Positions 2,230 through 28,963 of a stretch of DNA of 28,963 bases are shown piece after piece. Every line of letters begins with the position of its first letter. Position 1 is the stretch's first letter. Origin of the DNA: an uncultured Oscillospiraceae bacterium (GTDB lineage: Bacteria; Bacillota; Clostridia; UMGS1883); the NCBI GenBank assembly GCA_964442035.1, contig CAYTWZ010000002.1, forward strand, positions 2,211 to 31,173. Reading direction: 5' to 3'. The position numbers and the translations under genes were made by a program. The notes below the pieces were generated by a model. It saw nothing but the letters and a program-made list of their open reading frames with translations. It was not told the DNA's origin and ran no database searches.

Positions 2230-2323
2230 TAAGGGATTTTTGAATAATTTGCGCTTGCGGCTTAGAACAACTCTTGAGGTTATTTTACTTACAATCAGCG
2301 TTTTAGAATTAATCAGGGCTTCC
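2230..2323 (+). repeat. Short-form copy (R1) of an imperfect-palindromic intergenic element family
   Basis: The left arm 2230-2276 matches 27572-27618 at 35 of 47 positions by my hand alignment. The right arm CAATCAGCGTTTTAGAATTAATCAGGGCTTCC (2292-2323) matches 27709-27740 and the reverse complement of 24476-24507. The central ~80 nt present in the two long copies is absent. Confidence 0.6.
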
Positions 2324-3675: not shown

Positions 3676-3688
3676 AGTGAGGTACACT

Positions 3689-4417
3689 ATGGACTATAAG
3701 CTGATTGATTTTCATACACATATTCTGCCCGGCATTGACGATGGAAGCAAAAATGCGGAAACGTCGGTCAAAATGCTCAAAAGACTGGAAGAACAGGGTG
3801 TAAGCGATGTTGTACTAAGCTCCCACTTTTACGCCTCCCAGAACAGCATTGAGGAATTTGCACTCCGGCGAGAAAAAAGCCTCGGCCGTCTTTTGGAAGA
3901 GCTTGATAAGACTCCCGTAAATATCAGGCTTCACCTTGGGGCGGAGATATTGTTCATGGATTACATTGACCGGGTAGAGGGCCTTAGTGAGCTTGCCATA
4001 GGCAAAACCAAATATATTCTGTTGGAGATGCCCTTTGTCAAGTGGAGCGAAAGGATGCTGGGAACAGTCTACAAGGTCATAGGCAACGGCTACATTCCTG
4101 TTATTGCCCACTTTGAGCGCTACATTCCCATACAGGGAAAGCTGGATTATATATATGAGCTAAAACGTATGGGCTGCATACTTCAGATGAATGCCGGCAA
4201 TTTTAAAGGCTTTTTCCGGAAGGGGAAGGCGTTGAAGTTTTTTGAAGATAATACTGCATCGCTTTTAGGAACAGACTGCCACAATCTGGACAGCCGACCT
4301 CCCGAGCTGAAGGCGGCCTATGAAGCAATAGGCCAGAAGCTTGGGGAAGATGAACTTCGGCGCATAAGCGCTGTAGGGGAAAAAATCCTCGAAAATTCCC
4401 GGACAGTGTATAACTAA
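3689..4417 (+). CDS. PHP-family protein-tyrosine phosphatase (CpsB/YwqE type)
   Basis: The N-terminal sequence is LIDFHTHILPGIDDG, with SSHFY, HFERY and GTDCHN metal-site motifs. I prefer ATG 3689 (GTGAGGT upstream) over GTG 3677. Confidence 0.85.
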   Translation: MDYKLIDFHTHILPGIDDGSKNAETSVKMLKRLEEQGVSDVVLSSHFYASQNSIEEFALRREKSLGRLLEELDKTPVNIRLHLGAEILFMDYIDRVEGLSELAIGKTKYILLEMPFVKWSERMLGTVYKVIGNGYIPVIAHFERYIPIQGKLDYIYELKRMGCILQMNAGNFKGFFRKGKALKFFEDNTASLLGTDCHNLDSRPPELKAAYEAIGQKLGEDELRRISAVGEKILENSRTVYN

Positions 4418-4544
4418 ACGAAAGATGTCCCCCGTTGGCGGGCGATCCTTTCGTTTTCGGGGAGATCAATCTCCCACCGAAAACGCCCCATGACGGGCTT
4501 TCAGCCCTTATTGAACTAAAAACAGGAGAACATTCGGTGGGAGA
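4409..4544 (+). promoter_or_regulatory. Conserved structured intercistronic element, copy A (candidate attenuator or cis-regulatory RNA)
   Basis: 4409-4513 aligns with 25391-25499, including identical 20-nt and 19-nt blocks. Pairings are P1 4416-4424/4448-4456, hairpin 4452-4466/4470-4485, and hairpin 4495-4507 followed by TTATTG. There is also a perfect 12-nt complement between 4470-4481 and 4533-4544. Confidence 0.55.
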
Positions 4545-4577
4545 AAGGCTTTGTATTTTTAAAAGGAGGTATTTGAC

Positions 4578-5339
4578 ATGGGTGACGATTTTACCCTCAG
4601 TGACAAGCAAATTCGTGAAAACCGAAATCGGGAGTACCGCAAAGATCCGCCGGAGCTTATCTTAGTCATAATATGCGTGGCCGCTGTAGTGACGGGTGTG
4701 TTTTTCCCGGGGGAAATGTATGATTCGGTGTTTGGTACCGAGCTTATACTCAGCAATCTCATCCGCGTGTTCTTGGCTGTACTTGGTTTTATATTCGGAG
4801 TGCGAATTATTGTTCCTAACCATAAGATCACTTATATTTTTGGCGGAATAGTGATTCTTGTGTCCGTCATACTGGCCTTTTCTGCTACGCCTGAGGCCAT
4901 GATTGCGTTTGCGATGGGCTTCGCGTCTATGATCGTATCTGCGGCAAGACCGTCGGTGCTTGTAATTACGGCAGCTGCTGTGATACTTGTGGAAATAATA
5001 AAGCGGCTGTATATTATATTCGGCCCCGGACAAAAGGCTTCCCGTGGGGGAAAGGTATTGACCCGTGTATCTGCAATCTTGGGCGGGCTTTCCATATTTA
5101 TTGCGCTGCTGATGCCTATGGTCGATCAGGAGTATCCCGGCATGGCAACGGTCGTGCTTTGGATAGTTGGGCTGATATGCGCCGCCGGCGGGTTTATTAC
5201 AGGAGTTGTTGTAAAGCAGCCGTCATATAATACCGGGGACTGGCTCCGGCTCATAGCTTCAGCGGTGGGTATGGGAATACTGCTTTCCTGTATTACTACA
5301 ATATTCGGCCTCCCCGTGCTCGACTTTATGAGGTGGTAA
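4578..5339 (+). CDS. Polytopic membrane protein of unknown family (~7 predicted TM helices)
   Basis: The ATG at 4578 has a strong SD AAAGGAGGT 7 nt upstream. The sequence has hydrophobic segments throughout. I recognise no motif in it. Confidence 0.6.
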   Translation: MGDDFTLSDKQIRENRNREYRKDPPELILVIICVAAVVTGVFFPGEMYDSVFGTELILSNLIRVFLAVLGFIFGVRIIVPNHKITYIFGGIVILVSVILAFSATPEAMIAFAMGFASMIVSAARPSVLVITAAAVILVEIIKRLYIIFGPGQKASRGGKVLTRVSAILGGLSIFIALLMPMVDQEYPGMATVVLWIVGLICAAGGFITGVVVKQPSYNTGDWLRLIASAVGMGILLSCITTIFGLPVLDFMRW

Positions 5340-5427
5340 GGAATAATAAAAGACTTCCTTTCGGACTCTTGAGATAAGGTCTGAATTGAATACTAAAAAA
5401 CTTTGTTTATTAAGCCGCAAATGAACA

Positions 5428-5469
5428 GACCCCCAAAGGTTAGACCTGAAAATCTAACTTTTGGGGGTC
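5428..5469. terminator. Long hairpin between convergent genes
   Basis: GACCCCCAAAGGTTAGA (5428-5444) pairs with TCTAACTTTTGGGGGTC (5453-5469), giving a 17-bp stem with one mismatch and an 8-nt loop. There is no clean U-tract on either strand. Confidence 0.5.
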
Positions 5470-5501
5470 ACGTCATCTGATAGGGAGTATTTTATTGCCT
5501 G

Positions 5502-7034
5502 TTATTTAAAATACGCCAGCGCTGTCTGCATCTGTATGTCAACTACCTTGTTCATATTGTATTCGTAGTCGTTCAGCGCCATGGCTGTGTAGAAATCTAC
5601 CTCACCGGTGATCTCGATTTCGCTGTACCGCTGGAATACCCTTACAGCCGCCTCAGTGCGGCTGTTGTATATTCCGTCCACTTCGCTGTCGGCCAGCAGC
5701 TTGAGGGCGTTAAGCCTTTGCTCCACCCCAAGCCTTGTGCTGTCGGACTCCAGCATGTCTGGGGCAAGTAATATGTCTGCAAAATCCTCCTCATTTACGG
5801 GAGAAACCTCGTTTTCAACCGCGTAATCCGGGGTAAGTCCTGTGCCGTGGATGCGCTGATCGGAGGGGCTGTAATATTCGCCTATCGTGAACTTCAGCCC
5901 GCTGCCTGTGGGGGTATGCATTATTACCTGCATACAGCCCTTGCCAAAGGTTTTGGTTCCCATCAGCTTTGCGGCATTGCGGCTTTGAAGAGCCATTGCC
6001 AGAAATTCGCTGGCGGATGCGGTGTTTTCGTTTACAAGCACCAGCATTTCGTAGCCCGGAGCGTTGTAGTTTTCGGAGTACAGATCCACATTGTTTGCTT
6101 CATCCCGATATTTGAGCTTGCCGATAATTCCGGCTGAGATCAGCTTACGGGCTACCTCAATGGCCGCGTCGATATCTCCGCCTCCGTTGTCCCTCAGATC
6201 GATTATAACATTGTTTATGCCCTGATTTTTGAGCTGGTCAATGTAGCCGTCAAAGTCCTCAGGCAGAGATGCGGTGAAGGAGTCAACATCGATGTAACCG
6301 ATTTTGCGCCCGGCCTCGTTTTCAATGATATCCATGGTGGAATGACTTTCGGTGACCTTTTGGCGTACAGCACGTACATACAAGAGCTCATCGCCGCGAA
6401 CAATGCCTATATCCACAAAGGTGCCTTCCTCGCCAATGATCAGCTCGCGTGTGGCGGCAGGCTCGTAATTGGAGGTGTCAACTCCGTCCACCGATACGAT
6501 CTGATCGCCTACCTGAATGCCGGCCATCTCGGCTGAGCTGCCGGAAAACACATTCTCGATAACTGTGCCGCCCTTTTGTATAGTCATAGTTACACCTATG
6601 CCGTAAAATGAGGCATTGTAGTAATCAAGCTGCTGGGAGTAGAGCTCGGGAGGGTAATACTCCGCATACTCATCCCCAAGGGTCTTTACCATAGTTTCAA
6701 GGGCAAGATCAATGTCAAACCGACCACCGTTGTCAATGGTGGCACAGATCACGTTGTAAAGCAGGTTTTCGTCAGACACTCCGTAATAGTAGTTGTCGGC
6801 CAAAAGGTGGGCGTAATCCCTGATAAGGTTCTTTTGGCGGAATGCGGAAAGGGCATTTTTGAGCTTGGGATTGTCACTCTCTATTTCTGTGCTTTCCGTA
6901 ATTGCTGGAGTATCCGCCTCGGCTTCTTCGGTAGCGGTAGGTGTGTTGACCTCCGTGCTTGCGGGGCTCTCGGCCAAGACAGGGGTAAAAATCAGCGTCA
7001 GCGCCAGCAGCAGTGATAAAAGTTTGTTTTTCAT
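5502..7034 (-). CDS. S41 family C-terminal processing peptidase with PDZ domain and C-terminal peptidoglycan-binding domain
   Basis: It has a signal peptide, a PDZ region (GIQVGDQIVSVDG), the S41 core (DLRDNGGG...NENTASASE...TFGKG), and a PG_binding_1-like tail (GIYNSRTEAAVRVFQ). Its ATG overlaps the upstream stop as ATGA. Confidence 0.9.
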   Translation of the reverse strand: MKNKLLSLLLALTLIFTPVLAESPASTEVNTPTATEEAEADTPAITESTEIESDNPKLKNALSAFRQKNLIRDYAHLLADNYYYGVSDENLLYNVICATIDNGGRFDIDLALETMVKTLGDEYAEYYPPELYSQQLDYYNASFYGIGVTMTIQKGGTVIENVFSGSSAEMAGIQVGDQIVSVDGVDTSNYEPAATRELIIGEEGTFVDIGIVRGDELLYVRAVRQKVTESHSTMDIIENEAGRKIGYIDVDSFTASLPEDFDGYIDQLKNQGINNVIIDLRDNGGGDIDAAIEVARKLISAGIIGKLKYRDEANNVDLYSENYNAPGYEMLVLVNENTASASEFLAMALQSRNAAKLMGTKTFGKGCMQVIMHTPTGSGLKFTIGEYYSPSDQRIHGTGLTPDYAVENEVSPVNEEDFADILLAPDMLESDSTRLGVEQRLNALKLLADSEVDGIYNSRTEAAVRVFQRYSEIEITGEVDFYTAMALNDYEYNMNKVVDIQMQTALAYFK

Positions 7035-13775: not shown

Positions 13776-16700
13776 TTATTTGCTTACTGACGTCAATGCG
13801 CATGAGGATGAGCCTGAGTACGTGCCGCCGGTCACTATTCCGTATGGCTCTTTCCCCGTGAAAGCGCCACCTGTTACGCTCCCTCCGTAATTTAATGTGT
13901 ATGAGCCGCTTTTGATTTCAGGTGTTGATATAAATACCCATGCGTATGCTTTTGACGGTACATATGTCACAATTTCATCCCCGCTTGAATTTGTTAGCTT
14001 GAACGCCTTACCCGCTGATTGTGATGAAAAGCCGCCTGAACCGCCCCACATACCGCTGCCGGAGGAACTTGACGAAGTCACAACGTAATACTGCTTCGCG
14101 CTGTCGGGAGTTATCGCCATATCGGATGAACCTGCGCCAATTACAGTACCTCCTGTAATTGAAAGTGTGTCGCCGTTGTTATCGCCTATGTCAAACACGC
14201 CGTTCCCGCCGCTTGTGGGGCCGTTTACAAGAAGCGTACCGCCCGAAATTAGAGCGCTGCCGTTGCTGTCAAAGCCATCGCCCTCTGCTTCGATATAGAC
14301 CAGTCCGCCGGATATTTCAACATATCCGTATGTCGACGAATCCTCACCGCCCCAGTTGGGACCGCTGTTCCAGCCTTGATTGCCGCCGTTCCAGCCTTGA
14401 TTGCCGCCCGGCCCCGCTAAAAGCTCAACTGACAAAGCGGAAACGGTATCAATGTCATATGCGCTGTCTGTCGGCTTGTCGCCTGCCGCGTTTACACCGT
14501 CGTCAGAGGAAACGATTCTTGTTTCACCGCCTAAAACATATATATTTGCGGCTTCTATGCCTTCATAGCTCTTTGTAATATTTATATCGGCGTTATCGCT
14601 TATATAAAGATAGCTGTCGCCGTGTATCCCATCGTCGCCTGTGGCGGCGGTTATGCTTCCGCCGATTATGCGCACAGTATGGTTTGAATGAACGGCGTCA
14701 TCATAGGTGTTTATATTGAAAGTGCCGCCACTGATATAAACAAGGTTGCCGCCCTTTACGCCCTTACAGCTGCTCGCCGCCTCGGGATTGTTTGCCGAAA
14801 CGGTCTGGGGCGCACCGCCGTATGCGGTCAAATCAAATGTGCCGCCGGAAATATTTGTTATGTTCTCGCTTTGTATACAATCCTGCTGGGAATTTACAGT
14901 GATATTGCCGTCTGTAACAACAACATTTCCGGTCCCGCACTGTATTCCGTCCTCGCTACAGGTTATGTCAAGAGTTCCTCCGTTGATATCAATTTCACCC
15001 TCTACATAGGCGAGAACCGTTGCTCCGTCTGTGTCGTATATTACCTCATTTACTTGAATTCCCTCCAAGGCTTTGGTGATCGTTATATTTGCGCCGCTAC
15101 CTATTGTAATGTTTTTTACCGCTTTGATTCCGTCCTCACCGGCCGACGCGACAATTGTGCCGCCTGTGATCGCCACACAGCCATCGCCCTCGGCAGGCGT
15201 GCCACTTGTTAACGTCGTGTCCTCAAGGTATGCAATGCTCGAAGCATTAGCCTTGATAGCTTCACCCGCGGCGTTGATCGTTATGTCGCCGCCAGTGATC
15301 GTGAGAAGAGTATCAGCTTGTATGCCGTCCCCGTTTGATACAGTGCCGTCCGTGCCTGTTGTTGTTTTTGAGGTTATATTTATTGTGCCGCCGTTTATCG
15401 TAACAGAACCGCCGGAAACGTATTCATTTGTCAGCGCGTCAATTTCAGGATCCTGATCGGACTTGATTCCGTCTCCTCCGGAAACAACCGTTATCGAATT
15501 GTTTTTCTTTGTGATTTTTACGGATTGGTCACCCTTTATGCCGTTGTTTGCGGCAGTAACATTTAAATCGCAGACGCCAATTTCGATGTCGTTCTTACAG
15601 CGTATGCCGTTCCCGTAATCGGATATTGCGTTAAGCGTTCCCTCACCCTTTATTGTAAGGTCATTCTTGCTGTAAATTGCTGTTGTATCCCCGTCCGATG
15701 AAGCTGATCTGAATGTGCTTTCGTTTTCTGTGGGAACAAGTGTTACCGTTCCCTTTAAACCGTCAAACGCGTTCCCCGTTGTGCTTGTTACGCTTACACC
15801 GTCAAGATTGACGGTGATTAAATCTGTCTTTTCGGAGGAATTAACTATTATCTGTCCATCGTTTAATGTGCCCTCAACGGTATATTCTCCCGCCGCCGTA
15901 ATTGTAACGGCAGTTCCAGATACGGTTACATTTTCAATGCCATCGGCATTCACGCTGTCACCCATAAGATGTATTATTCCGTCACCCGCGGAAATTACGG
16001 GATCCTGTGGAGATTCCTCCTCAGTCGCTTTGGTGGTGACGGTAACAGTGATATCGCCTGTTATCTTGGTTATTCTGTATGTATTTTCCCCAAGCTCGGA
16101 GGGCAGCTTTAGATTTTTGTAATTTGTTGACGGGGTCACTTCAACAGATTCGATCTCGTAGCCCTCATCCGCGGTAATCTTAAAATTCACCTGTCCGTTG
16201 CCGGAGGTATCGATTTCGCCGGTGTCGCCGCTTCGCGCGTATGCCTCTGTAACAAACTGCTCATCGCCTGTAAACACCTGCGTGTCAGACACGGCTATTG
16301 ATGCGTGGGAATCGGTCTCAAATGTCGCTTTAAAGCCCTCCGCTGTCGTTGCCTTGGTGGTGACGGTAACAGTGATATCGCCTGTTATCTTGGTTATTCT
16401 GTATGTATTTTCCCCAAGCTCGGAGGGCAGCTTTAGATTTTTGTAATTTGTTGACGGGGTCACTTCAACAGATTCGATCTCGTAGCCCTCATCCGCGGTA
16501 ATCTTAAAATTCACCTGTCCGTTGCCGGAGGTATCGATTTCGCCGGTGTCGCCGCTTCGCGCGTATGCCTCTGTAACAAACTGCTCATCGCCTGTAAACA
16601 CCTGCGTGTCAGACACGGCTATTGATGCGTGGGAATCGGTTTCAAATGTTGCTTTAAAGCCCTCCACAGGAACAAACACATCACTTAGCGGCTCAAGGGT

Positions 16701-17033
16701 CAGTACGCCGTTTTCTGTTTTCCAGAAAAAAGCTTTTAAAACATCGCCGTCATCTTTTAATGTGCTGTTAAAGACAAGCGACTTGTTGCCGGTTCCGTTT
16801 GTTTCTTCGGATACCACAATGCCCTTGAGCTGCCCTAAAGAGTCATATACCGCAACAATTCCTTTCCCGCTTTCGTCTGAGCCTTTGCTTACGACCATTG
16901 ATATATTTCCGTTCTCGTCAATATCCAATGAGGTAATTGAGCAGGCAAGCTCTGCCGCCTCCGCGGCAATTGAAAAAACCATCAGCGATAAAACGATGAT
17001 AAAACATAGAACCTTTGTGGAAATGGATCTCAC
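13776..17033 (-). CDS. Secreted Cthe_2159-like beta-helix carbohydrate-binding-domain protein with duplicated N-terminal domains
   Basis: A signal peptide is followed by two near-identical 108-aa domains. A long run of GDGI(K/Q/H)xD, DDGIH, YEGIEA, DDGVNA and GDGFDSNG turns follows, which is typical of the PF14262-type parallel beta-helix. The GTG start has GAGGAGGA 6 nt upstream. Confidence 0.7.
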   Translation of the reverse strand: MRSISTKVLCFIIVLSLMVFSIAAEAAELACSITSLDIDENGNISMVVSKGSDESGKGIVAVYDSLGQLKGIVVSEETNGTGNKSLVFNSTLKDDGDVLKAFFWKTENGVLTLEPLSDVFVPVEGFKATFETDSHASIAVSDTQVFTGDEQFVTEAYARSGDTGEIDTSGNGQVNFKITADEGYEIESVEVTPSTNYKNLKLPSELGENTYRITKITGDITVTVTTKATTAEGFKATFETDSHASIAVSDTQVFTGDEQFVTEAYARSGDTGEIDTSGNGQVNFKITADEGYEIESVEVTPSTNYKNLKLPSELGENTYRITKITGDITVTVTTKATEEESPQDPVISAGDGIIHLMGDSVNADGIENVTVSGTAVTITAAGEYTVEGTLNDGQIIVNSSEKTDLITVNLDGVSVTSTTGNAFDGLKGTVTLVPTENESTFRSASSDGDTTAIYSKNDLTIKGEGTLNAISDYGNGIRCKNDIEIGVCDLNVTAANNGIKGDQSVKITKKNNSITVVSGGDGIKSDQDPEIDALTNEYVSGGSVTINGGTINITSKTTTGTDGTVSNGDGIQADTLLTITGGDITINAAGEAIKANASSIAYLEDTTLTSGTPAEGDGCVAITGGTIVASAGEDGIKAVKNITIGSGANITITKALEGIQVNEVIYDTDGATVLAYVEGEIDINGGTLDITCSEDGIQCGTGNVVVTDGNITVNSQQDCIQSENITNISGGTFDLTAYGGAPQTVSANNPEAASSCKGVKGGNLVYISGGTFNINTYDDAVHSNHTVRIIGGSITAATGDDGIHGDSYLYISDNADINITKSYEGIEAANIYVLGGETRIVSSDDGVNAAGDKPTDSAYDIDTVSALSVELLAGPGGNQGWNGGNQGWNSGPNWGGEDSSTYGYVEISGGLVYIEAEGDGFDSNGSALISGGTLLVNGPTSGGNGVFDIGDNNGDTLSITGGTVIGAGSSDMAITPDSAKQYYVVTSSSSSGSGMWGGSGGFSSQSAGKAFKLTNSSGDEIVTYVPSKAYAWVFISTPEIKSGSYTLNYGGSVTGGAFTGKEPYGIVTGGTYSGSSSCALTSVSK
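16031..16665 (-). repeat. Near-perfect tandem duplication (2 x 324 bp, in frame) inside the large secreted protein gene
   Basis: 16031-16341 is repeated at 16355-16665 with an offset of 324. The only differences I see are two C/T changes near 16316/16640 and 16325/16649. Confidence 0.9.
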
Positions 17034-24475: not shown

Positions 24476-24646
24476 GAAAACGCTGATTGATTCTAAAATG
24501 CTGATTGGCGGGAAAATTTTTCTCGCAGTAAGGCAAAAAGCGCATGATTACTTGCTGTATTATGGGCTTCTTTAACCGAACTGCGGGGGAAATAACCGTC
24601 AAGCAGCGTTTTAAGCCGTAGACGTGAATTAATCAGAGCTTCCTTG
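24476..24646 (-). repeat. Long-form copy (R2) of the imperfect-palindromic intergenic element family
   Basis: The reverse complement aligns end to end with 27572-27740. Its arms carry GCTGATT x2 (24482-24488, 24500-24506) and AAGCAG/AATCAG (24601-24606, 24630-24635) in inverted orientation. It ends 24 nt before the GTG of the nucleotidyltransferase gene. Confidence 0.6.
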
Positions 24647-24796
24647 ATATTATTTGCCGGGAGAAAAATCTTATTCCAGGAAAACTACGGATCCATACAT
24701 TTGATATAGTTCGGTTCCATCCATGCGATTTTTGCTTTAACTTTTTTGCCCGCAATCAAAAATACAAATAATACAAAAAAAATTACAAGATTGTTC

Positions 24797-24852: not shown

Positions 24853-25395
24853 ATGTATGTGCTTCCCGGAACAAATATTGAAGTAGGGGAGCTGTCCTTT
24901 GACAGCGTTAATTCGCTGCTGAATTCAATTTTTCTCACAGGAGGACTGGTGCTTAGTCAGGTGGCAGGAATGACTGACTGTGCTCCACATGTGGTGCAGA
25001 ATTGGGTCAAAAGAGGGTTTGTTTCGCCGCCGGTGAACAAGAAATACAGCAAGCGGCAGTTTTGCAGAATAGCCTTTATCAACTTTTTGAAGGATGTGAT
25101 GCAGATCGACAAGGTCACGGCGCTGATGGAATATATTAATGGGGCGCTGGATGATGAAAGCGATGATCTGGTGGATGACTGTACGCTGTACTGCTACTTT
25201 GCTCAGGTAATAGGACAGCTGACGGACTTCCGCCGGGACACCATAGAGTCTGTGGTGGAAAAGTCGGTCTCCGGAGGAGGAGACAGCTATATCCAAGTCA
25301 GGCTCAAGGCCACACTTATAGTTATGGCCACCTCTTACGGAGCGGCAATGCTTCGAAGCAGGGTCAATTTGCTTATAAGTCAGTTGGATATATAA
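24853..25395 (+). CDS. Putative MerR-like HTH protein of the DUF1836 (YkrK-like) type
   Basis: The segment LSQVAGMTDCAPHVVQNWVKRGFVSPPVNKKYSKRQFCRIAFINFLKD fits the pattern I remember for DUF1836 proteins (t..mi.nyvK......P..KkYs..h......i..LK). The SD is GAGGG, 7 nt upstream of the ATG. Confidence 0.5.
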   Translation: MYVLPGTNIEVGELSFDSVNSLLNSIFLTGGLVLSQVAGMTDCAPHVVQNWVKRGFVSPPVNKKYSKRQFCRIAFINFLKDVMQIDKVTALMEYINGALDDESDDLVDDCTLYCYFAQVIGQLTDFRRDTIESVVEKSVSGGGDSYIQVRLKATLIVMATSYGAAMLRSRVNLLISQLDI

Positions 25396-25499
25396 CTAAA
25401 CGAAAGATGTTCCCGACTATATGGGCGGTGAGCGACCCTTTCGTTTTTCGGTGGGATATCAATCTCGAAACGTTGAAAGAGGGCTTTCAGCCCTTATTG
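25391..25499 (+). promoter_or_regulatory. Conserved structured intercistronic element, copy B
   Basis: It aligns with 4409-4513. P1 is 25398-25406/25438-25446. The central hairpin carries the conserved GATATCAATCTC apex. GGGCTTTCAGCCCTTATTG lies at 25481-25499. Confidence 0.55.
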
Positions 25500-25523
25500 G
25501 AAAAAAAGGGGGTCAAGGGGATA

Positions 25524-26162
25524 ATGTTCATTGTGAATTGGTGGAATGCCATGACAGCGGCTCAGCACGGGTTTTTGTATGTAGCGGTTCCGGCTACTTT
25601 AGTACTGGTCATTCAGACACTGTTGCTGATGTTTGGCATAGGCGACAGTGACGGTGATGTGCCGGACGGGGATATTCCCGATGTGGATGTTGGCGATGGA
25701 AATTTTCAGGCGGTGGAGGATTTCTCCAACTGCGATGTTTCCGGTGACTTGGACGGTGATCTGAGGATATTTACGGTCAGGGGTATGGTTGCGTTTTTCT
25801 CGGTGTTTGGCTGGTCAGGCGCGGCAATACTCGGAGGCGGACTTCCGCTGTGGTTTTCCGTTGTGGGGGCTGTAGTGGCGGGAGCTGCCGCAATGCTGGC
25901 GGTGGCGTTTATCGTCAAGTTTGCCCTTAATCTTCAGCAGTCGGGCAATATCAATCCCCGCAATGCCGTGGGTAAGTCCGGAACGGTTTATATAACTGTT
26001 CCTCCGGCTCGAAGCGGCAGCGGAAAGGTCAATCTTGTGCTTCAGGAGCGCTACTCCGAAATGGAAGCTGTTACCGATGGAGAACAGCCAATTTCGCCCG
26101 GTCGTGAAGTAACTGTAGTTGGAACTACAACAATGGGAACACTTATAGTTAGGGAAAAGTAA
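25524..26162 (+). CDS. NfeD/YqiJ-like membrane protein (acidic loop, TM helices, C-terminal OB-fold)
   Basis: It has TM helices flanking a D/G-rich loop and a C-terminal NfeD-like beta domain (GKSGTVYITV...GKVNLVL...VTVVG). It sits in the typical position upstream of flotillin. I prefer ATG 25524 to ATG 25407, because 25407 would translate the conserved non-coding element. Confidence 0.7.
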   Translation: MFIVNWWNAMTAAQHGFLYVAVPATLVLVIQTLLLMFGIGDSDGDVPDGDIPDVDVGDGNFQAVEDFSNCDVSGDLDGDLRIFTVRGMVAFFSVFGWSGAAILGGGLPLWFSVVGAVVAGAAAMLAVAFIVKFALNLQQSGNINPRNAVGKSGTVYITVPPARSGSGKVNLVLQERYSEMEAVTDGEQPISPGREVTVVGTTTMGTLIVREK

Positions 26163-27561: not shown

Positions 27562-27571
27562 AGCTGTAACC

Positions 27572-27740
27572 TAAGGAAACGCTGAATAATTTACGCCTAC
27601 GGTTTAAAACAAACCTTGGCGATTAATTCACCGGCAGCTCGGTTAAAAAGCCGAGCTGCCGCAAGTATTCATGTGCCTTTTGCCTTGCCTCGAAAAAATA
27701 TTCTTTGCCAATCAGCATTTTAAAATTAAACAACGCTTCA
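27572..27740 (+). repeat. Long-form copy (R3) of the imperfect-palindromic intergenic element family
   Basis: It starts 11 nt after the flotillin stop. It aligns with the reverse complement of 24476-24646 and with both arms of 2230-2323. It contains a perfect 11-bp hairpin, CGGCAGCTCGG (27632-27642) / CCGAGCTGCCG (27651-27661). Confidence 0.6.
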
Positions 27741-27863: not shown

Positions 27864-28963
27864 ATGAGCAAAGGAAAGCTTTTGCCGATACTGATGAGTC
27901 TGACAATGTTGGGCTCATCGGTCAGTATCCCCGTTTCCGCGGCGGAATACACCGACAATCAGATAGCGGACACGGTAGCCCGTGTAGCTGTGACGGAGAT
28001 TTTTGCCACGGATGTGAGCGAACCCTCTGAGGATGAATTTATTGCTCCTGCCGAAGATGTAGAAGAGAACGAGGCGGAAAAAGCGTCACAGGAGGATGCT
28101 TATGTCATGACAGACAGCGATGTTAAACTGTTCGCGGATTCATTGACATATGAAAACCTGCAATACGAAGTAAATGACGGCAATATTACAATAGTGGGCT
28201 GCAATGACGGTGTGGAAAGTATTGATATTCCCGCAACTATCGATGGGGAAGCAGTTACGAGTATTTCCGCTTACGCTTTCAGCGGACATTCAGATTTAAA
28301 AAAGCTCACCATACCGGAGGGAGTGACATATCTCGGGGCTTACTTTTTGACGGGAACAGCCGTAGAGAGGCTGACCATCCCCTCCACAGTGACGGAATCC
28401 GGGGGCAGCATCAACGGCGCGTTGGCCGGTTCCGCGGTTACAGAGCTGACCTTTGCGCCGGGCACGGTAAAAATTCCGAATAACATTTGCCGCAGCGATT
28501 CGCAGGGCAGTCTGCTTGAGATAGTCAATTTGCCGGACGGAGTGGAGACTATCGGAGATTGTGCTTTTACAAACGCCAAGAGCCTGACAAGGTGTGACCT
28601 CCCGGAGTCCGTTGTTACGATAGGAAATAACGCTTTTCAGAACTGCGTCAGTCTGGACGGCGAGATAAATATTCCCGCCAGTGTAAAAACTATCGGAGAT
28701 TACGCATTTGATGGCTGCAAAAGTATTACAAGCGTAAAAACCAACCTGAACACAAGCTCCGAGTGGGTAGGGACGGATAAAGTTTCCTTTTCAGCAACAA
28801 TTGGAAAGATGGCTTTCCGGAACTGCACTTCAATGAACGGTTTTGAGCTTGCCGCCAGCGTGAAAACGCTGAATAACTATGCGTTCGAGGGCTGCTCATC
28901 CCTGAGCGAGCTCACCATACCGGAGGGAGTGACATATCTCGGGGCTTACTTTTTGACGGGAAC
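27864..28963 (+). CDS. BspA-type leucine-rich-repeat surface protein (5' partial, runs off the window)
   Basis: This ORF is not in the ORF track because it has no stop inside the window; I translated it by hand. It begins with the signal peptide MSKGKLLPILMSLTMLGSSVSIPVSAAEY. Repeated IP..V..IG..AF..C..L units follow, as in the LRR_5 type. The frame is open to the last base. Confidence 0.75.
   Translation, partial: MSKGKLLPILMSLTMLGSSVSIPVSAAEYTDNQIADTVARVAVTEIFATDVSEPSEDEFIAPAEDVEENEAEKASQEDAYVMTDSDVKLFADSLTYENLQYEVNDGNITIVGCNDGVESIDIPATIDGEAVTSISAYAFSGHSDLKKLTIPEGVTYLGAYFLTGTAVERLTIPSTVTESGGSINGALAGSAVTELTFAPGTVKIPNNICRSDSQGSLLEIVNLPDGVETIGDCAFTNAKSLTRCDLPESVVTIGNNAFQNCVSLDGEINIPASVKTIGDYAFDGCKSITSVKTNLNTSSEWVGTDKVSFSATIGKMAFRNCTSMNGFELAASVKTLNNYAFEGCSSLSELTIPEGVTYLGAYFLTG
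28303..28963 (+). repeat. Long-period direct repeat inside the LRR gene
   Basis: The 55 nt AGCTCACCATACCGGAGGGAGTGACATATCTCGGGGCTTACTTTTTGACGGGAAC at 28303-28357 recur exactly at 28909-28963. The offset is 606 nt, or 202 codons. The second copy is cut by the window end. Confidence 0.85.

Follow-up and report, generated by a model that had tools for sequence, protein, structure and literature searches.

A probably mobile, REP/BIME-like structured repeat placed on stop codons in Clostridia

Repetitive extragenic palindromes (REPs) lie mostly downstream of open reading frames (ORFs), are probably transcribed, and often supply a stop codon with their ends; one REP superfamily has no linked transposase, and the survey of these repeats mentions neither Firmicutes nor Clostridia (PMC3733652). 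Another described system, Acido-Lenti-1 (RF01687), is present in multiple copies, often in tandem arrays, and its authors give no function for it (Weinberg et al. 2010, PMC2864571). Here we describe an ORF-less, modular element of about 100-118 nt that is found twice in a 28,963-nt stretch of the genome of an uncultured Oscillospiraceae bacterium (contig CAYTWZ010000002.1, positions 2,211 to 31,173; the whole stretch is called the window below). A preliminary description of this DNA saw in the element's pairings the logic of an attenuator or riboswitch expression platform, a logic that is contradicted by the genomic context, by empty sites in relatives and by covariation. Since the element sits at the stop codons of unrelated genes and is absent from the same sites in relatives, we regard it as a dispersed element of mobile type. 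It is most probably a mobile or insertion-polymorphic structured repeat resembling REPs and bacterial interspersed mosaic elements (BIMEs), co-transcribed with the gene upstream, rather than a riboswitch or attenuator.

The 20-mer TATAACTAAACGAAAGATGT occurs exactly twice in the window (4409-4428 and 25391-25410; shuffle expectation 0.00), as does the 19-mer GGGCTTTCAGCCCTTATTG (4495-4513 and 25481-25499; shuffle expectation 0.01). A pairwise alignment of 4395-4580 with 25380-25530 gave two further blocks common to both copies, CCTTTCGTTTT(T)CGG and GAT(A)TCAATCTC, and between the shared blocks the copies are unlike in both sequence and length. The exact-match counts and the alignment bear out the repeat as originally described (4409-4513 and 25391-25499), with its shared blocks and with the dissimilar stretches between them. 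A covariance model of the family (R1), run with filters off, recovered only these two copies in the window, both on the forward strand: copy A at 4409-4516, from its 5' box to the ...CCCTTATTGAAC tail (91.8 bits, E = 6e-19), and copy B, partly decayed, at 25391-25502 (90.0 bits, E = 1.6e-18). Neither the covariance model nor nhmmer found a degenerate second copy at 4514-4577, a stretch that is ordinary flank because a relative (locus L060) carries it as well. The 21 kb between the copies hold genes for an S41 peptidase, pgk-tpi-gpmI, an ABC transporter and similar core chromosomal functions; att sites of an integrated island were considered and rejected, as these 21 kb are core metabolism and the two copies are separate insertions.

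Of 15 Clostridial elements, 11 start no more than about 35 nt from the stop of an ORF that lies upstream in the same orientation. That stop often lies inside the 5' box, in which case the element's own TAA supplies it. Both copies in the window carry the box TATAACTAA (4409-4417 in copy A and 25391-25399 in copy B, forward strand, placed from the sequence and the ORF list), which is kept in other copies too, and the upstream gene uses a different TAA triplet of the box in each: 4415-4417 is the stop of a CpsB-type tyrosine phosphatase gene (3677-4417; Pfam CpsB_CapC) and 25393-25395 that of a DUF1836/MerR-like gene (24853-25395). Copy A is followed by a gene for a 253-aa membrane protein without a Pfam match (4578-5339), and copy B by an nfeD-like/flotillin pair, the nfeD-like gene of which starts at 25524. 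Beyond these two junctions (cpsB/membrane protein and DUF1836/nfeD-flotillin), the flanking gene pairs are purE/purM, AraC/rnc, engB/M50 peptidase, GH28/GNAT and PPIase/Zn-ribbon, and further neighbours code for a DUF975 zinc-ribbon protein, a sialate esterase and a PPIase; in L031, the 411-aa ORF that precedes the copy encodes an Asp-Al_Ex permease. These neighbouring genes are unrelated and have no common functional theme. The preliminary description had named copies scattered irrespective of gene context as the sign of a plain dispersed repeat, and this is the distribution that we find, past the stop codons of unrelated genes.

Some ORFs open within the element or run across it. A listed 251-aa ORF (25407-26162) takes its start from an ATG within copy B that by chance shares the frame of nfeD, whereas nfeD itself most likely begins with the ATG at 25524, after GGGG...GGGGATA; in L057, a 68-aa gene call spans a divergent copy of the element. 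A small peptide gene was also considered, as the ATG at 4425 opens a 22-codon frame, and was rejected because the indels between the copies are not multiples of three.

Relatives carry the same gene junctions without the element. For site B, relatives were found through flotillin homologues 79-92% identical to that of the window (L053, L057, L058, L059 and L062-L065), and all eight loci lack the element there, with 11-21 nt from the DUF1836 stop to the nfeD start. The C-terminus of the DUF1836 protein is of equal length with or without the element, which therefore begins exactly at the stop. The empty site reads ..TTG TAA AATAGGGGG and the filled site ..ATA TAA CTAAACG...CCCTTATTGG AAAAAAAGGGGG. 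The element is missing here from more distant relatives too, so an empty site is the ancestral condition and copy B is a derived insertion. At site A, about 100 nt are missing from L060 (CpsB 91% identical), precisely between the stop and AAAACAGGAG; the empty site there reads ..GTA TAC AGG TAA AAAACAGGAGG.. and the filled site in the window ..GTG TAT AAC TAA [ACG...CCCTTATTGAACTA] AAAACAGGAG... Presence or absence at orthologous sites is polymorphic, then, at both positions (eight empty loci for B and one for A), and the element widens the intercistronic gap to 128 nt at site B, against 11-21 nt when empty, and to 160 nt at site A, against 57 nt when empty. The heptamer AACTAAA is found at both junctions of copy A, where it is also the conserved start of the element, with nothing comparable at copy B or at the others; it may be a duplication, a recombination core or a coincidence.

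A full copy consists of the 5' box, (T)TATAAC-TAA, then helix P1 around P1a, then P2, then P3 with its conserved flanks. The four helices were obtained with RNAalifold on seven copies: P1 pairs AAACG.AAG with CUU.CGUUU and encloses P1a, a variable GC hairpin, and P3 is extended by AUGA/UUAU around a bulged C. In copy A, P1 (4416-4456) joins 4416-4424 with 4448-4456 around P1a (4427-4434 with 4439-4446), as found in the fold of this copy and backed by compensatory changes. P2 (4457-4483) consists of UCGGGGAGA on the 5' side, a UCAA loop and UCUCCCACCGA(AA) on the 3' side; it is imperfect, with bulged bases and with mismatches marked in the covariance-model alignment, and three of its pairs have compensatory changes. 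The P3 module (4490-4515), an imperfect hairpin with the bulged C, reads AUGA-C-GGGCU-UUC-AGCCC-UUAU plus a UGAA tail, and in single-sequence folds P3 with its flanks likewise forms an imperfect hairpin of about 30 nt. In copy B, P1 (25398-25446, pairing 25398-25406 with 25438-25446) again surrounds a variable hairpin, as placed by the alignment and the covariance model, and the P3 hairpin with its UUAUUG tail lies at 25481-25499 (19-mer match and covariance model); about 5 nt of the P2 3' strand are missing from the covariance-model alignment, which breaks P2. All of these features are on the forward strand. The pairing coordinates given at the outset were right (P1 at 4416-4424/4448-4456, the core of hairpin 2, which is our P2, at 4457-4465/4470-4481, and hairpin 3 at 4495-4499/4503-4507).

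Covariation was assessed on a model-based alignment of eight full-length copies, two from the window and six from four other Clostridia genomes. Across this alignment 93% of cells are paired, and pairing falls to 45-62% in a control in which the partners were slid. Eight pairs have changed on both sides (two in P1, one in P1a, three in P2 and two in P3), and the observed covariation measures were matched by 0-1 of 500 shuffles. P1 of the first copy in L041, for example, reads AAAUUAAG/CUUAAUUU and is compensated, and the P3 stem occurs in relatives as GGGGC/GCCCC, GGGG/CCCC and GGCGC/GCGCC with its flanks, ..UUGAAUGAC and UUAUUGAA, unchanged. The fold energies of single copies are unremarkable (z = -1.9 for A and -1.6 for B), so the evidence for structure is covariation among homologues and not energy. 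Judged from this comparison of sequences, the four-helix fold is real and maintained by compensatory change. The proposal of a structured element is upheld by the compensatory changes that P1, the core of hairpin 2 and hairpin 3 gain in homologues; for hairpin 2 this holds of the core across homologues, and fails in copy B, where the hairpin is broken.

A scan for the 19-mer, with one genome per species, gave 49 stretches of DNA with a match. Full-length homologues are found in a Lachnospiraceae metagenome-assembled genome (MAG; L009), in Acetivibrio sp. MSJd-27 (L029), where AraC-type and rnc genes flank a copy, and in a mouse-gut Clostridia MAG (L012, L041 and L042), and variant forms with extra or different hairpins in L002, L030 and L034. 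L041 holds two complete copies in tandem, the second without the 5' box. Short forms (L013, L020, L023 and L035), directly past a stop codon, consist only of TATAAC, a few bases, CGYTGAATGAY, P3 and TTATTGAA. Many of the matches outside the Clostridia belong to non-coding repeats that two Verrucomicrobia MAGs carry in multiple copies, frequently where contigs end, and others to Hydrogenedentota, Bacteroidales and further phyla; in the non-coding repeats of all these groups (Verrucomicrobiota, Hydrogenedentota, Bacteroidales and others) the 19-mer recurs with AUG..C upstream. About five matches are ordinary coding sequence, and the chance expectation is about four by our own estimate for the collection. 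The 19-mer had no match in viral contigs and blastn against plasmids and phages returned nothing, so a phage or plasmid origin is rejected. A metagenome scan with AAGATGT-N55-85-19mer found only a duplicate of the L029 copy, and a search for signature sequences of the element in the searchable literature gave string matches to chance primers only. Within the Clostridia the element is sporadic.

The short forms and isolated P3 modules have surroundings of their own. In L013, L020 and L023, which come from two MAGs of Anaerovoracaceae and one of Oscillibacter, an almost identical DUF6809 gene is followed by the short-form element and then by a strong terminator hairpin, and in L020 a C-5 cytosine DNA methylase gene lies about 440 nt downstream; the DUF6809-element region of these loci may be a shared mobile region. 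In L052, a P3-type module (GGCGC-UGC-GCGCC with standard flanks) lies at 973-1006 on the minus strand, at the end of the contig; the membrane-protein gene (protein 87% identical), on the opposite strand, ends about 170 nt before it. The counterpart of this place in the window, the convergent intergenic region 5339-5502, is without the element, and the pair may be a third presence/absence difference, the L052 contig being cut there.

Once inserted, copies appear to be under little constraint. In L030 and L034, orthologous loci with genes about 97.5% identical, the element is 92.3% identical and third codon positions are 93.7% identical, and some of the changes in the element weaken P2; this drift, together with the decay of copy B, suggests near-neutral evolution after insertion. 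Copies are 70-78% identical within a genome and 64-82% between genomes.

Among described systems, REPs and BIMEs appear to be the closest functional analogy. Like them, the element is an ORF-less short hairpin repeat with a conserved unpaired tag beside a covarying stem; it lies downstream of ORFs, between co-directional or convergent genes, and has ends that supply stop codons; it occurs in modular and tandem arrangements; and some REP families, too, are without a linked transposase. It differs in its tags, which are AUGAC at P3 and AUGUC at P1a and not the GTAG/CGTC tag of the REP superfamilies, in an upper P3 stem of only 4-5 bp, and in having four different hairpins instead of one repeated palindrome. 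Unlike REPs and BIMEs, moreover, it has an apparently low copy number, no RAYT gene nearby, a Clostridial host and a much stricter placement, exactly at the stop codon.

Two classes of non-autonomous mobile elements share further traits with it. Miniature inverted-repeat transposable elements (MITEs) such as Correia, RUP, BOX and bcr1 are likewise about 100 nt long, non-coding and intergenic, are present or absent in close relatives, and are co-transcribed with their neighbours into stable RNA folds, co-transcription being in our case what we infer; in contrast to MITEs, the element has no reproducible target-site duplication, no recent burst (copies 64-82% identical) and no parent insertion sequence that we could find. 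IS200/IS605-derived palindrome-associated transposable elements (PATEs) and the REP/RAYT system, which are mobilised as single strands by HUH Y1 transposases, also lack inverted repeats and duplications and have a strand-specific orientation. As in PATEs, imperfect hairpins on the same strand lie near both ends (P1a and P3), each after a similar motif (GAUGUC and AAUGAC), and the left end adjoins a short, conserved, AT-rich sequence. The targets of IS605-type elements resemble TTTAA(C), with insertion on their 3' side. Unlike those of PATEs, the two end hairpins of the element differ in sequence, and the likeness is one of resemblance only. No tnpA, tnpB or RAYT gene, and no parent element sharing the end hairpins, was found among the 49 stretches with the 19-mer and the flanking ORFs scanned, and a TnpB/IscB guide RNA or an IS605-type element end was rejected, there being no such gene nearby. 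An integron attC site was rejected because, by inspection, there are no RYYYAAC/GTTRRRY boxes and no pairing between the ends, and a likeness to the K-turn, the hammerhead or group II domain V was rejected because their conserved cores do not fit.

No Rfam family was found by searches of the window and of L009 at the gathering and E-value thresholds, the best sub-threshold E-value being at least 0.4; the earlier failure to match the element to any known family agrees with the absence of an Rfam 15 family at the gathering threshold in the window. The nearest resemblance is to Acido-Lenti-1, whose model aligns to P3 with positions 28-45 only, its last 18, at 13.5 bits against a threshold of 37. 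True RF01687 matches were found in L028 and L016 (43.1 and 37.8 bits), close to the 19-mer in the former and about 2 kb away from it in the latter. Acido-Lenti-1 is laid out as a longer hairpin, a 12-nt linker ending in ..UAUG(N)C, a 5-bp hairpin with a UUC-type loop, and then U. P2, the 12-nt linker ACGUUGAAUGAC, P3 and the following U of our element follow this plan, and a seed member of Acido-Lenti-1, UUAUGUC-GGGCUUCCAGCCC-U, is nearly identical to AAUGAC-GGGCUUUCAGCCC-U of the element. The two differ in that the element has a longer P2 (9-12 bp with a loop of 4-6 nt), lacks the conserved CU that follows the first hairpin, comes from other phyla and adds the 5' box, P1 and P1a. We take the relation, seen at the level of sequence, to be a resemblance and not a demonstrated membership.

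We propose that the element is non-autonomous mobile or recombining DNA of the REP/BIME/MITE kind, which would land at TAYANNTAAA-like sequences at the ends of genes. It would be transcribed together with the upstream gene and would fold in the mRNA as a cluster of hairpins in the 3' untranslated region (3'-UTR) or between cistrons, probably neither sensing a ligand nor attenuating transcription. Any effect would most likely be generic and weak, such as a barrier to 3' exonucleases, a processing point or a longer gap between cistrons; interference with termination is a further candidate where the element abuts the stop codon. For E. coli, it is reported that REPs no farther than about 15 nt from a stop reduce upstream translation through ribosome stalling (Liang, Rudd and Deutscher, 2015). 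Our best guess for the mover is a hairpin-recognising transposase or recombinase that acts in trans and would bind P3 and its flanks, and an excision or circle junction of such an element would read ...CCCTTATTG|AACTAAACG....

Several observations weigh against this proposal. By inspection, the element has no terminal inverted repeats, as a comparison of its 5' end TATAACTAAACGAAAG with the reverse complement of its 3' end CAATAAGGGCTGAAAGCCC makes plain, and a target-site duplication is not consistent across copies. No transposase or recombinase is linked to any copy, as judged from the flanking ORFs scanned, including those of the checked loci from other phyla; nor was a transposase seen in the 29 kb of the source genome or in the other loci, of up to about 20 kb each. 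At site A, insertion and precise deletion are indistinguishable. The copy number appears low: the 29-kb window has two copies, no other Clostridia genome with the 19-mer has more than three exact copies of it, and a single divergent copy (L057/L058) turned up in about 106 kb of sequence from relatives. The copies are divergent and old, unlike the products of a recent burst. With 23 G-U pairs for 9 A-C mismatches, or 16 for 9 if one invariant pair is set aside, the alignment gives only a mild hint that folding takes place on the sense strand, and both the production of an RNA and its effect are what we infer. Finally, P3 and its flanks are deeply conserved from phylum to phylum, which hints at a specific partner not named in the proposal.

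This conservation also favours the most probable of the alternatives, in which the element is RNA punctuation selected by the host: a 3'-UTR or intercistronic motif that would bind an RNase, an RNA chaperone or the ribosome and set mRNA ends, stability or translational coupling, mobility being incidental. It would explain the sense orientation past stop codons, the P3 flanks that keep their sequence as the stem covaries, the 19-mer with AUG..C upstream in non-coding repeats of several phyla, and the likeness to the 3' half of Acido-Lenti-1; the divergence within genomes, which equals that between genomes, is also what one expects of functional motifs. However, L030 and L034 drift at the synonymous rate, copy B has decayed, close relatives are empty at the same operon junctions with no visible compensation, the occurrence is sporadic and low, and no partner was found. 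We consider this explanation distinctly unlikely.

A gene for a small RNA has very little probability. TATAAC would be its -10 box, transcription would start near AAACG, and P3 with UUAUUG would end an RNA of about 100 nt. TATAAC agrees with TATAAT at five of six positions and in almost every copy is 5-7 nt away from the P1 that follows, P1 would make a protective 5'-terminal stem, and the compact multi-hairpin RNA is kept across families. Against this, there is no conserved -35 box or extended -10, and a promoter scan was negative at copy A and, for copy B, picked up only a site farther downstream. The second tandem copy of L041 has no box, P3 lacks a terminator-like U-tract, both TAA triplets of the box are stops of upstream ORFs, and the element is insertion-polymorphic and decaying. 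The tail TTATTGAA was also considered as a -35 box and rejected, since a comparison by eye with the downstream sequences gave no consistent -10.

The reading of the preliminary description, a cis-regulatory switch in which P1, hairpin 2 and a helix of 4470-4481 with 4533-4544 would control read-through or translation downstream, draws on three observations: the structure is conserved and without a match to a known family, CGUUU can pair with either conserved AAACG in five of the seven full-length copies counted, and a 12-bp long-range helix appears in the minimum free energy (MFE) fold of copy A. The adjacent hairpins and the two possible pairings of CGUUU do resemble riboswitch platforms and attenuators: with the AAACG upstream of it CGUUU forms P1, and with the one downstream it would extend hairpin 2. 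The downstream pairing, however, has no compensatory change, and it is lost in L029 and in the first copy of L041, in which P1 is compensated; a switch between P1 and hairpin 2 is not supported. A search of 4300-4700 and 25250-25650 gave no terminator-like hairpin followed by a U-tract. Unlike riboswitch platforms and attenuators, the element does not lie in the leaders of a gene class; it follows stop codons, and its neighbours lack a theme. It is dispensable in relatives, where it is missing from orthologous sites in operons that are otherwise intact, P2 is broken in copy B, and orthologous copies drift at about the neutral rate.

The 12-nt complement itself is present as described and is used in the MFE fold of copy A. 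TTCGGTGGGAGA (4533-4544, forward strand), the perfect complement of 4470-4481, lies outside the element and falls in the 5' region of the membrane-protein gene (4578-5339). It has no equivalent beside other copies, and it belongs to an older flank shared with a relative without the element, so it drops out as a member of a chain of alternative pairings; its flank counterparts are TTCGGGGGAAAA in L060 and GTGGGAAAGG in L052, where the element is missing or the contig cut. The match is a feature of the copy A locus and not of the family. TTCGGTGGGAGA is also the family consensus for the 5' strand of P2, from which copy A's own 5' strand has lost two bases; chance, conversion, selection and an older remnant are possible origins of its match to the P2 3' strand. 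Taken together, the switch reading is close to refuted and retains almost no probability.

Beyond the proposal of a mobile repeat, we speculate that the element, or at least its P3 module (UGAAUGAC, a covarying 4-5-bp hairpin and UUAUUGAA), may be the substrate of a widely distributed machine acting in trans, an idea that we hold to be possible and rather unlikely. If it is true, the machine could be a recombinase or transposase guided by hairpins, which would place ORF-less modules exactly on stop codons and replace the stop by the TAA of the element, or else a conserved RNA-binding factor, and the Clostridial repeat, Acido-Lenti-1 and the arrays of Verrucomicrobiota, Hydrogenedentota and Bacteroidales would form one ancient superfamily spanning several phyla.

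The distant loci with the 19-mer contain other repeats as well. Loci of the Verrucomicrobia MAG JAAYVR01 (L005, L006, L017, L032, L047 and others) and of JARYMD01 hold mosaic non-coding arrays of up to about 830 nt, shared by many contigs and often at contig ends, in which ACGTTG-type short repeats are mixed with the 19-mer hairpin and with Acido-Lenti-1-like hairpins; one array, in L047, has a group II intron (RF02005, 66 bits) at a distance of about 1 kb. In Hydrogenedentota (L027, 5129-5380, and L043, 4286-4540), the 19-mer hairpin and a CCUGGGGC..GCCCCAGG hairpin form an inverted pair about 240 nt apart, an arrangement that resembles a REPIN or a MITE.

The window also holds repeats of other kinds. 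A second family is represented by 2225-2276 and 27567-27618 (73% identical), which begin just past the stops of an EamA/GtrA gene (2200) and of the flotillin gene (27561); no common fold was found for these two copies, and the one at 27567-27618 shares AAACGCTGAATAAT with the short form in L035, a different sequence taking the place of P3. The sequence AATCAGCRTTTTA occurs five times in intergenic DNA against 0.19 expected, at 2293-2305(+), 24476-24488(-), 24494-24506(-), 24601-24613(+) and 27710-27722(+), sometimes in close direct or inverted pairs, and adjoins a shared block GAATTAATCAGRGCTTCCTT (2306-2345 and 24626-24665); from its sequence and placement, it may be a protein-binding site or another repeat family. 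Within a 1085-aa minus-strand ORF (13776-17033), a 300-nt direct repeat (16024-16323 and 16348-16647; 99% identical, 324 nt spacing) probably reflects the duplication of a domain in a large surface protein. Towards the right end of the window, an exact 55-nt repeat (28303-28357 and 28909-28963, 606 nt spacing), apparently within an ORF that starts near 27865 and runs off the window's end, may likewise be a repeated domain.

The element is not a new riboswitch class; this corrects the earlier reading, and it should not be pursued as one. What our results add is a structurally supported, REP/BIME-like repeat family of Clostridia for which Rfam has no model, with the unusual habit of sitting exactly on stop codons, supplying the stop itself and widening the gaps within operons. 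Such repeats also affect assembly, as contig L001 starts inside the element, L052 ends in a P3-type module and many of the 19-mers in the Verrucomicrobia MAGs lie at contig ends, and they affect annotation through spurious ORF starts such as that of the 251-aa ORF at 25407. The likeness of P3 to Acido-Lenti-1 and to repeats of at least four other phyla provides a testable lead on these orphan motifs.

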